Part shown: positions 7,491 through 59,282 of the stretch, piece by piece
Position numbering within the stretch: position 1 is the first letter of the stretch
How the letters are laid out: each line of letters opens with the position of its first letter
Assembly: GCF_003334385.1 (NCBI RefSeq)
Contig: NZ_QOWN01000019.1
Source of the DNA: Escherichia coli
GTDB lineage: Bacteria; Pseudomonadota; Gammaproteobacteria; Enterobacterales; Enterobacteriaceae
Reading direction: 5' to 3' (one strand)
DNA length: 64,000 bases
Made by a program: the position numbers and the translations under genes
The notes under the pieces: generated by a model
Database searches by the model: none
What the model saw: only the letters and a program-made list of their open reading frames with translations
What the model was told of the DNA's origin: nothing

Positions 7491-7912
7491 GCGCACGTTG
7501 TTACAATTTACGTTTTAAACCTACGTGCGCAATAACCCAGACTACGCCAACAGAAGTACGTTTCTGGGGCGTGTTTTGTCAGGAGTTTAATCTCGCGTTT
7601 CGATGGTGAGCGGGCGAACCAGGCCGTAAATCACCATTGGTGATCCGAGGCCAATCAGCAATAAACGGTAGATAATTGAAGGTTTAATACGCTTAATCTG
7701 TACTGTGGATGTTTTACTGGAGTTATTCATTAGTTTGGCCAATAGTTCCACTATTTCAATATGATAAACCTCGTCCTGTTGAAAAACCAGACAGCACATT
7801 TAAGAAAGTATATAAAAAACAATATGTCGTTATATAAATAAGGAAATTGCACTGCATCATGGCATTTCATAATATGCGTTAATTGTTCTTTTTTATATTC
7901 TTTGAGGGAAAT

Positions 7913-49380: not shown

Positions 49381-50079
49381 ATGATCATAAAAAAAAGCGG
49401 TGGTCGCTGGCAGCTAAGCCTGCTGGCGAGCGTGGTAATCAGTGCCTTTTTTCTCAACACAGCTTACGCCTGGCAACAAGAATATATCGTTGATACGCAA
49501 CCCGGACTTTCCACAGAGCGTTACACCTGGGATAGTGATCATCAACCTGATTACAACGATATTTTGTCGCAACGTATTCAAAGTAGCCAAAGGGCGCTGG
49601 GACTGGAAGTCAATCTGGCGGAAGAAACCCCTGTGGATGTGACCAGCAGTATGAGTATGGGCTGGAATTTTCCTTTATATGAACAGGTTACAACCGGCCC
49701 GGTCGCGGCATTACATTACGATGGCACAACCACCTCGATGTATAACGAGTTTGGCGACAGTACTACCACGCTGACCGATCCGTTATGGCATGCCAGCGTG
49801 AGTACCTTAGGCTGGCGTGTTGACTCCCGGCTTGGCGATCTCCGACCCTGGGCGCAAATCAGCTATAACCAGCAATTTGGCGAGAATATCTGGAAGGCGC
49901 AATCAGGCCTGAGCCGGATGACGGCGACAAACCAGAACGGCAACTGGCTGGATGTCACCGTAGGCGCTGATATGTTGCTCAATCAAAATATTGCCGCCTA
50001 TGCCGCGCTAACTCAGGCAGAAAATACCACTAATAATAGCGACTATCTGTATACGATGGGGGTTAGCGCCAGATTTTAA
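49381..50079 (+). CDS. yhjY: outer-membrane beta-barrel (autotransporter-domain-like) protein, 232 aa
   Basis: ATG 49381 (track starts at GTG 49375); signal peptide; C-terminal aromatic residue. Confidence 0.82.
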   Translation: MIIKKSGGRWQLSLLASVVISAFFLNTAYAWQQEYIVDTQPGLSTERYTWDSDHQPDYNDILSQRIQSSQRALGLEVNLAEETPVDVTSSMSMGWNFPLYEQVTTGPVAALHYDGTTTSMYNEFGDSTTTLTDPLWHASVSTLGWRVDSRLGDLRPWAQISYNQQFGENIWKAQSGLSRMTATNQNGNWLDVTVGADMLLNQNIAAYAALTQAENTTNNSDYLYTMGVSARF

Positions 50080-50193
50080 CGTAACAGTCACAATTGAAAC
50101 CATTAAATAACAATAGTTGTGGCGATAGTGGGTGCTAACTTACCAAATAATAAATTTGGTGAATAATTGTCGCGTCATTCATTCCTGAACTAA

Positions 50194-50224
50194 GGCATTT
50201 CATTCCGTTCTGATGGCATTTCAT
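50194..50224 (+). promoter_or_regulatory. direct repeat GGCATTTCAT-N11-GGCATTTCAT upstream of yhjX (candidate LytTR/YpdB response-regulator binding site)
   Basis: Exact 10-bp direct repeat at 50194-50203 and 50215-50224, about 85 bp upstream of yhjX ATG. Confidence 0.7.
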
Positions 50225-50307
50225 GCCGTTTTTCCCCAGGCATAAAGTGCACTTCGTTATGGTTGTCGGCAGAGATTTTTCCTTTTTATTACTGCAGGAA
50301 TACTGCC

Positions 50308-51516
50308 ATGACACCTTCAAATTATCAGCGTACCCGCTGGCTGACACTCATCGGTACTATCATTACCCAGTTTGCGCTGGGGTCGGTTTATACCTGGAGC
50401 CTGTTTAATGGCGCGCTTTCCGCCAAGCTGGATGCGCCGGTAAGCCAGGTCGCTTTCTCTTTCGGCTTGTTAAGTCTGGGGCTGGCAATTTCGTCTTCTG
50501 TTGCGGGCAAATTACAGGAACGTTTTGGCGTTAAACGCGTCACCATGGCTTCCGGCATTTTGCTGGGATTAGGCTTCTTCCTGACAGCGCATTCTGACAA
50601 CCTGATGATGCTGTGGTTAAGCGCCGGTGTGCTGGTGGGACTGGCAGATGGCGCGGGTTATCTGCTGACGCTCTCTAACTGTGTGAAGTGGTTCCCGGAG
50701 CGTAAAGGTCTGATCTCCGCGTTCGCTATCGGTTCTTATGGTCTGGGTAGCCTGGGTTTCAAATTTATCGACACGCAGCTGCTGGAAACGGTCGGTCTGG
50801 AAAAAACCTTTGTGATTTGGGGAGCGATTGCGCTGTTGATGATTGTTTTCGGCGCAACGTTAATGAAAGACGCACCAAAACAGGAAGTGAAAACCAGCAA
50901 TGGTGTGGTGGAGAAAGATTACACGCTGGCAGAGTCGATGCGTAAACCGCAGTACTGGATGTTAGCGGTAATGTTCCTGACCGCCTGCATGAGCGGCCTG
51001 TACGTGATTGGGGTAGCGAAAGATATCGCCCAAAGTCTGGCACACCTTGATGTGGTTTCCGCAGCCAATGCAGTCACTGTTATTTCCATCGCCAACCTTT
51101 CAGGTCGTCTGGTGCTGGGTATTCTGTCTGACAAAATCGCCCGTATCCGTGTTATTACCATTGGTCAGGTGATATCGCTGGTGGGTATGGCGGCCCTGCT
51201 GTTTGCACCATTGAATGCAGTGACGTTCTTTGCAGCGATTGCCTGCGTGGCATTTAACTTTGGCGGCACTATTACCGTCTTTCCGTCACTGGTCAGTGAG
51301 TTCTTTGGCCTCAATAACCTGGCGAAAAACTACGGTGTGATTTATCTCGGTTTCGGTATCGGTAGCATTTGTGGTTCGATTATCGCCTCACTGTTTGGCG
51401 GCTTCTATGTGACCTTCTACGTGATTTTCGCCCTGCTGATTCTGTCATTGGCGCTTTCTACGACGATTCGTCAGCCAGAGCAGAAAATGTTGCGTGAGGC
51501 GCATGGCTCCCTTTAA
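50308..51516 (+). CDS. yhjX: MFS transporter (oxalate/formate antiporter-like), 402 aa
   Basis: Native start MTPSNYQRTRWLTLIG; 12-TM MFS pattern. Confidence 0.9.
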   Translation: MTPSNYQRTRWLTLIGTIITQFALGSVYTWSLFNGALSAKLDAPVSQVAFSFGLLSLGLAISSSVAGKLQERFGVKRVTMASGILLGLGFFLTAHSDNLMMLWLSAGVLVGLADGAGYLLTLSNCVKWFPERKGLISAFAIGSYGLGSLGFKFIDTQLLETVGLEKTFVIWGAIALLMIVFGATLMKDAPKQEVKTSNGVVEKDYTLAESMRKPQYWMLAVMFLTACMSGLYVIGVAKDIAQSLAHLDVVSAANAVTVISIANLSGRLVLGILSDKIARIRVITIGQVISLVGMAALLFAPLNAVTFFAAIACVAFNFGGTITVFPSLVSEFFGLNNLAKNYGVIYLGFGIGSICGSIIASLFGGFYVTFYVIFALLILSLALSTTIRQPEQKMLREAHGSL

Positions 51517-53622: not shown

Positions 53623-53699
<77 letters not shown>

Positions 53700-53706
53700 A
53701 ATTCGA

Positions 53707-53735
53707 AAAGCCTGCTCAACGAGCAGGCTTTTTTG
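53707..53735 (+). terminator. rho-independent terminator of proK
   Basis: Perfect 11-bp stem aaagcctgctc / gagcaggcttt, loop aacg, T-run. Confidence 0.9.
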
Positions 53736-53789
53736 CATCTGCAGCTCATGAGGATGAGAACCTCCGGGGGCAGGGAGGTTCGACTCGAC

Positions 53790-57385: not shown

Positions 57386-58288
57386 ATGTCACAGGTTACT
57401 GAAAATAAAGTGATTAGCGCACCGGTGCCGATGACCCCGTTACAGGAGTTCTGGCACTATTTTAAACGCAACAAAGGCGCGGTCGTCGGGCTGGTTTACG
57501 TCGTCATCGTGCTGTTCATCGCGATCTTTGCCAACTGGATTGCACCCTATAACCCGGCGGAACAGTTCCGCGATGCACTGCTCGCCCCGCCAGCCTGGCA
57601 GGAAGGCGGCAGCATGGCGCACTTGCTGGGCACCGATGACGTAGGCCGTGATGTGCTGTCGCGCCTGATGTACGGTGCGCGCCTGTCGCTGCTGGTTGGC
57701 TGTCTGGTAGTTGTGTTATCGCTGATTATGGGCGTTATTCTCGGCCTGATCGCCGGTTACTTTGGCGGCCTGGTCGATAACATCATTATGCGCGTGGTCG
57801 ATATCATGCTGGCGCTGCCAAGTCTGCTGCTGGCGCTGGTGCTGGTGGCAATTTTCGGCCCGTCGATTGGTAACGCCGCGCTGGCACTGACCTTCGTTGC
57901 CTTGCCGCACTATGTGCGCTTAACCCGCGCCGCCGTGCTGGTGGAAGTTAACCGCGATTACGTCACCGCGTCTCGCGTGGCGGGTGCCGGGGCGATGCGT
58001 CAGATGTTTATTAACATCTTCCCGAACTGCCTTGCGCCGCTGATTGTTCAGGCGTCGCTCGGTTTCTCTAACGCCATTCTCGATATGGCTGCTCTTGGTT
58101 TCCTCGGCATGGGGGCACAGCCGCCAACGCCTGAGTGGGGCACCATGCTCTCCGACGTGTTGCAGTTCGCGCAAAGCGCCTGGTGGGTCGTGACCTTCCC
58201 GGGTCTGGCGATCCTGCTGACGGTGCTGGCATTTAACCTGATGGGTGACGGTCTGCGTGACGCGCTCGATCCCAAACTGAAGCAGTAA
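57386..58288 (+). CDS. dppC: dipeptide ABC transporter permease (300 aa)
   Basis: Track ORF. Confidence 0.94.
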
Positions 58289-58298
58289 GAGGTTCGAG

Positions 58299-59282
58299 AT
58301 GGCGTTATTAAATGTAGATAAATTATCGGTGCATTTCGGCGACGAAAGCGCGCCGTTCCGCGCCGTAGACCGCATCAGCTACAGCGTAAAACAGGGCGAA
58401 GTGGTCGGGATTGTGGGTGAGTCCGGCTCCGGTAAGTCGGTCAGTTCACTGGCGATTATGGGGCTGATTGATTATCCGGGCCGCGTAATGGCAGAAAAAC
58501 TGGAGTTTAACGGCCAGGATTTGCAGCGTATCTCAGAAAAAGAGCGCCGCAACCTGGTGGGTGCCGAAGTGGCGATGATCTTCCAGGACCCGATGACCAG
58601 CCTTAACCCGTGCTACACCGTGGGTTTCCAGATTATGGAAGCGATTAAGGTGCATCAGGGCGGCAACAAAAGTACCCGCCGTCAGCGAGCGATTGACCTG
58701 CTGAATCAGGTCGGTATTCCCGATCCGGCATCGCGTCTGGATGTTTACCCGCATCAGCTTTCCGGCGGCATGAGCCAGCGCGTGATGATCGCCATGGCGA
58801 TTGCCTGTCGGCCAAAACTGCTGATTGCCGATGAACCGACCACCGCGCTGGACGTGACCATTCAGGCGCAAATCATCGAACTACTGCTGGAGCTACAGCA
58901 GAAAGAGAACATGGCGCTGGTGTTAATTACCCATGACCTGGCGCTGGTGGCGGAAGCGGCACATAAAATCATCGTGATGTATGCAGGCCAGGTGGTGGAA
59001 ACCGGTGATGCGCACGCCATCTTCCATGCGCCGCGTCACCCGTATACTCAGGCATTGCTGCGTGCGCTGCCAGAATTTGCTCAGGACAAAGAACGTCTGG
59101 CGTCGTTGCCAGGTGTCGTTCCCGGCAAGTACGACCGCCCGAACGGCTGCCTGCTTAACCCGCGCTGCCCCTATGCCACTGACAGATGTCGCGCTGAAGA
59201 ACCGGCGCTGAATATGCTCGCTGACGGGCGTCAGTCCAAATGCCATTACCCACTTGATGATGCCGGGAGGCCGACACTATGA
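58299..59282 (+). CDS. dppD: dipeptide ABC transporter ATP-binding protein (327 aa)
   Basis: Walker A GESGSGKS, signature LSGGMSQR. Confidence 0.94.

Follow-up and report, generated by a model that had tools for sequence, protein, structure and literature searches.

The exact 10-bp direct repeat located upstream of yhjX in the stretch of Escherichia coli DNA analyzed in this work (64,000 nucleotides, hereafter the window) is the published operator of YpdB (PyrR) in the yhjX promoter, and it is therefore a known element and not a new one. The comparison of this promoter among Enterobacteriaceae suggests that the unit recognized by the regulator is not the 10-mer as written but a 12-nt sequence, and two further conserved elements, which could contribute to cooperative binding and pulsed expression of yhjX, have been found next to the published sites.

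The direct repeat of the yhjX promoter and the YpdB operator

Two exact copies of GGCATTTCAT are present in the forward strand at positions 50194-50203 and 50215-50224, separated by the 11-nt spacer TCCGTTCTGAT, as described in an earlier note that was made from the letters of the window. The similarity of both copies continues past the 10-mer, with 15 of 16 identical positions in GGCATTTCAT[T/G]CCGTT, and the 3' end of the downstream copy is 83 nt away from the yhjX start codon (ATG at 50308), close to the 85 bp that had been estimated. The sites of LytTR regulators generally consist of two repeats of 9-11 nt that are 11-13 nt apart (PMC4847170). In the yhjX promoter there are two exact 10-mers, with a conserved core of 12 nt, and a spacer of 11 nt (period of about 21 bp), which was found both in the window and in 81/81 orthologous promoters, so that the LytTR-type architecture proposed from the sequence agrees with the published one.

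The window segment 50171-50228 (+) was found to be identical, with 0 mismatches, to the 58-nt core of the oligonucleotide used in the SPR analysis of YpdB by Behr et al. 2016 (Biosci Rep 36:e00326, PMC4847170), where the two 10-mers were named sites A and B. The authors of that paper attribute the definition of the sites to Fried et al. 2013 (J Bacteriol 195:807). This base-for-base identity supports the interpretation of the repeat as a target of the pyruvate-responsive YpdA/YpdB system acting on yhjX, which the earlier note had named, and at the same time establishes that the feature was already known. Site A (50194-50206, +), the published high-affinity site, comprises the 10-mer 50194-50203 and the conserved unit through TCC, and site B (50215-50227, +), the promoter-side site with lower affinity and fast on/off kinetics, comprises the 10-mer 50215-50224 and the unit through GCC. 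The SPR measurements with YpdB-D53E resolved a high-affinity slow component with a KD of about 1.2 nM, assigned to site A, and a lower-affinity fast component with a KD of about 21 nM, assigned to site B and dependent on site A (PMC4847170). Transversion of site A abolished the binding of YpdB-D53E, while that of site B altered the kinetics with site A still bound, results that led to the sequential 'AB-BA' model (PMC4847170). The mutational analysis of the repeat that had been suggested as a check was thus, in effect, already available, with an outcome in favor of its function.

YpdB is a LytTR regulator, and the pathway runs from pyruvate through YpdA and YpdB to yhjX, the sole direct target (PMC4847170). 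YpdA and YpdB have since been renamed PyrS and PyrR, and other genera possessing YpdAB induce a reporter of the yhjX promoter of E. coli. In uropathogenic E. coli, induction of yhjX reportedly requires the non-cognate kinase BtsS together with YpdB, which indicates that the upstream signalling step may differ among strains.

The 2.3-kb segment 49300-51600 of the window (yhjY-yhjX) showed 100% identity to E. coli K-12 MG1655 and, used as query, matched 5,423 out of 5,426 complete genomes of E. coli, with a chromosomal location in every case. The gene order at this locus is bisC, yiaC, tag, yhjY, yhjX and eptB, and ypdA and ypdB are absent from the genes of the window. The regulated gene, yhjX (50308-51516, +), codes for an MFS transporter of 402 amino acids according to its translation and the RefSeq annotation, and its product scored 478 bits with the NCBIfam model TIGR00890 (oxalate/formate antiporter-family MFS) and 342 bits with NF049980 (the NCBI 'L-lactate MFS transporter' model). 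The identity to MG1655, the annotation and the TIGR00890 score confirm the identification of the downstream gene made in the earlier note. The window is E. coli K-12 DNA, and in full it aligned to one MG1655 record with 99.9% identity and small indels. Compared to the MG1655 record NZ_CP032667.1, it lacks 168 bp at 53681-53788, a repeat-rich stretch after eptB that is near tRNA-Pro and RtT-like repeats, and a second length difference of 26 bp is located near its left end; both differences likely correspond to repeat-number or assembly variation.

Frequency of the repeat and conservation within E. coli

In 64 kb, an exact repeat of 10 nt is statistically unremarkable by itself. The window contains 10 exact 10-mer pairs with a spacer of up to 30 nt, versus 2.2 expected from first-order Markov simulations, and at least one such pair was present in 81% of the simulated windows. 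It is the intergenic position in a promoter, together with the conservation and the published binding experiments, that takes the repeat of the yhjX promoter beyond chance. An exact-match search of the whole window retrieved GGCATTTCAT three times, the copy outside the yhjX promoter being at position 7861. Other direct repeats detected in the forward strand of the window were the exact 11-nt repeats TGCTGGCGCTG (57807-57839, 21-bp period) and TGGCGCTGGTG (58912-58950, 27-bp period). After conversion of the coordinates to the MG1655 record, they were located inside the dppC and dppD coding sequences and, because of this location, they probably represent repetition at the peptide or codon level.

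Of the 5,426 complete E. coli genomes searched by blastn, 5,423 carried the 43-bp dyad region at 50190-50232, with a median of one occurrence each; with a 43-mer, this search excludes only other loci sharing about 20 or more contiguous bases. The K-12 version of this 43-mer was present in 3,749 genomes and the SF-166 version in 1,636 (of about 5,423). The sole difference of the latter is the change of G50194 to T, which turns site A into TGCATTTCAT, and T is the base at 50194 in about 30% of E. coli genomes. This polymorphism limits the perfect 10-mer repeat to about 69% of the genomes, so that it is not species-wide, and the perfect repeat that is common to both E. coli versions is the 9-mer GCATTTCAT.

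Conservation in Enterobacteriaceae and the probable recognition unit

A species scan with one genome per YhjX-bearing species, which included Escherichia, Citrobacter, Enterobacter, Klebsiella, Kluyvera, Buttiauxella, Kosakonia, Lelliottia and other genera, provided 80 loci, and 81 distinct yhjX promoters of Enterobacteriaceae made up the alignment set. In every locus, the best-matching pair of boxes 5' of yhjX had a spacer of 11 nt, with the boxes 21 bp apart in 81/81 promoters, and the aligned promoters showed zero indels in the segment 50171-50236. Conservation was concentrated in the boxes. Site A (50195-50206) reached a mean majority fraction of 0.99 with 9 of 12 invariant columns, and site B (50216-50227) reached 0.95 with 7 of 12, versus 0.53-0.62 in the spacers and 0.54 in the upstream intergenic DNA; the median overall identity of the promoters to the window was 56%. 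The part of the A-B spacer at 50207-50214 (+) has a fixed length and a free sequence in the 81-promoter alignment, and the stretch 50207-50215, which takes in the variable G50215 (first base of site B), gave a mean majority fraction of 0.62 without invariant columns.

The leading position of each 10-mer admits either G or T, as seen at position 50194 with G in 53 promoters and T in 28, and the three bases that follow the 10-mer are invariant, TCC in site A and GCC in site B. Considering this pattern, the unit that is conserved, and presumably recognized by YpdB, would be the 12-nt sequence GCATTTCAT[T/G]CC and not the 10-mer as written. Directly 3' of site B there is a TTTT run (50229-50232, +) in which T was found in 80-81 of the 81 promoters at each position, and which may act as a flank of site B, as a bend or as an upstream contact of the RNA polymerase. 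A separate conserved patch was observed at 50124-50139 (+), with GATAG at 50124-50128 and CTAAC at 50135-50139, within the otherwise variable yhjY-yhjX intergenic DNA, about 35-50 bp 5' of the third box described below, in a part where the alignment is less reliable.

A third in-phase copy upstream of site A

A third copy of the box, CGTCATTCATTCC, is located at 50173-50185 (+), in register with the other two and 21 bp before site A, and is here called site 0. It corresponds to site A minus one T (GTCATT-CATTCC versus GGCATTTCATTCC), and when up to 3 mismatches to the two-box pattern were allowed, it was the only further match in the window, with 3 mismatches. In its 12-nt stretch 50174-50185 (GTCATTCATTCC) the mean majority fraction was 0.95, with 7 of 12 invariant columns, a conservation on a par with that of sites A and B, and the bases kept in 81/81 promoters were G50174, TTCAT at 50178-50182 and C50184. 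The spacing of 21 bp between site 0 and site A was likewise maintained in 81/81 promoters. With a matrix built on sites A and B, site 0 scored weakly in E. coli (1.9) and had a median of 5.5 across species, and the upstream copy is nearer to the consensus in several species, such as Buttiauxella with GGCCATTCAT. In some genera the two-box search even selected the upstream copy and site A as the pair. The published DNase-protected fragment extends 23 nt 5' of site A and merely 4 nt 3' of site B (PMC4847170), which places site 0 within the protected region. Site 0 could be a third contact that works cooperatively and not autonomously, or else an essential flank, a role to which we give a little less than even probability.

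Probable core promoter and inverted box-like element

Between the boxes and the gene, the hexamer TATGGT at 50258-50263 (+) is the probable -10 element of the YpdB-dependent promoter, as judged from its conservation, since the TAnnnT pattern (T1, A2 and T6) was kept across the 81 promoters, at 37-38 nt from site B in all of them. A -10 element at this position would place site B just 5' of a non-consensus -35 region and would predict a transcription start at about 50270-50271, so the geometry of the sites relative to the RNA polymerase is a prediction from conservation; a search of the accessible literature for the yhjX transcription start retrieved no data. The Shine-Dalgarno sequence AGGA was read at 50296-50299 (+), 8 nt 5' of the ATG, and a CAGGA motif was conserved in most of the aligned promoters.

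Other promoter candidates have been discarded. A scan of 50050-50350 with the sigma-70 consensus gave a single match, TTACCA-16-AATAAT (50140-50167), and did not call the promoter at 50258-50263. This match was rejected as the yhjX promoter, considering that it is located 5' of the YpdB boxes in poorly conserved DNA and that one match is also the yield of shuffled sequences. The hexamers CATAAA/TAAAGT (50241-50248) were rejected as -10 elements, the T1/A2/T6 pattern being kept across species by TATGGT alone. No terminator-like hairpin was found in the scan of the yhjX promoter region.

An inverted element similar to the YpdB box was found at 50239-50251 (-), between site B and the probable -10 hexamer. 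It reads TGCACTTTATGCC and differs from KGCATTTCATKCC at 2 positions, including an otherwise invariant C. Its matrix score was 13.1, and scores of 12 or higher have a background frequency of 7e-6 per position. At the same place, the element was present with up to 2 mismatches in 30 of the 81 species and was perfect in Yokenella and Kosakonia (L022 and L064); Enterobacter, Lelliottia and the Citrobacter freundii group are devoid of it. Binding to this element in E. coli is not claimed, because the published protected fragment does not include it and one of its mismatches is at the invariant C. The element could work as a shut-off operator.

Regulatory model and alternative explanations

The set of observations is best explained by the published model of YpdB at sites A and B of yhjX. 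This explanation is considered almost certain, and there is no evidence contradicting it. The 12-nt unit, the -10 hexamer and the participation of the third copy are extensions proposed here. According to the published model, the kinase YpdA is activated when pyruvate is present outside the cell and phosphorylates YpdB at Asp53. One activated YpdB monomer then binds tightly and slowly to the upstream site A (50194-50206), and a second monomer is recruited cooperatively and weakly to site B (50215-50227), two helical turns further on. The occupancy of site B brings the RNA polymerase to the weak core promoter, allowing the transcription of yhjX, and the burst is ended by the fast release from site B, as in the 'AB-BA' model.

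A chance duplication without regulatory role would fit with the frequency of comparable 10-mer pairs in the window and in most of the simulated ones, but it would explain neither a conservation limited to the boxes and an invariant spacing in 81 species, with surrounding DNA at a median identity of 56%, nor the published binding and mutation data (PMC4847170), and its probability is practically negligible. Slightly less remote, although still very improbable, is that the main binder of the repeat is another regulator, for instance the LytTR paralogue BtsR, with YpdB being secondary. The BtsS-dependent induction of yhjX in a uropathogenic strain points in this direction, but YpdB was still the DNA-binding partner in that work. 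In addition, the BtsR oligonucleotide used as control DNA carries an unrelated motif of the ACCGCTCA type, and yhjX was identified as a target of YpdB (PMC4847170).

A different question is whether the operator is an array of three boxes (site 0, A and B at 21-bp intervals), in which a third YpdB would bind cooperatively to site 0 after site A. This possibility extends the YpdB A/B model and does not exclude it. The conservation of site 0, as high as that of the published sites and with the same fixed spacing, its location inside the DNase-protected fragment and the closer match to the consensus in species such as Buttiauxella argue for the array. A third near-consensus copy, also upstream, is present in the BtsR oligonucleotide according to our reading of PMC4847170. 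Against it, mutation of site A left no binding of YpdB-D53E even with site 0 intact (PMC4847170), so that site 0 does not work independently; the kinetics resolved two components, not three (PMC4847170); the matrix score of site 0 in E. coli is low, and its conservation could also come from a DNA-shape flank for site A or from another protein. On balance, the three-box operator is regarded as plausible, with the chances somewhat against it.

A broader proposal, which we consider rather unlikely, is that the yhjX control region is a conserved multi-box array with three direct boxes spaced by 21 bp and an inverted box in about one third of the species. This inverted box, near-perfect in that third of the Enterobacteriaceae species, may overlap the core promoter. 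If the proposal were true, a third YpdB at site 0 could stabilize the complex and YpdB on the inverted box could turn the promoter off again, which would give the pulsed yhjX expression a basis in the DNA sequence itself. The third direct box and the inverted box may not have been described before.

With the YpdB A/B model as the preferred explanation, the value of this analysis is mainly that of a positive control, in which a validated transcription factor site and the right regulator were recovered from raw sequence. The pyruvate-sensing two-component system of which this site is the single output governs nutrient scavenging and has been linked through YhjX to acid and aminoglycoside responses. 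The comparison of promoters defines the recognition unit more sharply and contributes the two further conserved elements.

Comparison with known systems

The two boxes of the window are the YpdB (PyrR) sites A and B of E. coli yhjX without any difference, with the same DNA, motif, spacer and target. What has been added in this work is that the first G is not conserved and the three bases after the 10-mer are, and that a third in-phase copy and a nearby inverted copy accompany the two sites.

The LytTR operators of the AgrA, ComE, PlnC and VirR type are likewise paired direct repeats with a center-to-center distance of 21 bp, and they are also occupied sequentially or cooperatively by response regulator monomers (PMC4847170). 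The sequence of the yhjX box, however, is unrelated to that of their boxes, LytTR sites being devoid of a common consensus (PMC4847170), and the signal is pyruvate for YpdB, in contrast to the peptide pheromones of the AgrA/ComE/PlnC/VirR-type systems.

BtsR (YehT) at the btsT/yjiY promoter belongs to a paralogous LytS/LytTR system, which likewise responds to pyruvate and has one transporter as its single target. In our reading of the published BtsR oligonucleotide (Table 1, PMC4847170), the boxes ACCGCTTA and ACCACTCA are 21 bp apart, and a third near-copy, GCCGCTCA, is located 20 bp upstream. The BtsR motif differs from that of YpdB in having 8 nt and a 13-nt spacer, and its locus is a different one, outside the window. 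The presence of an additional upstream copy in both cases hints at a three-box layout that may be common to the two E. coli LytTR systems.
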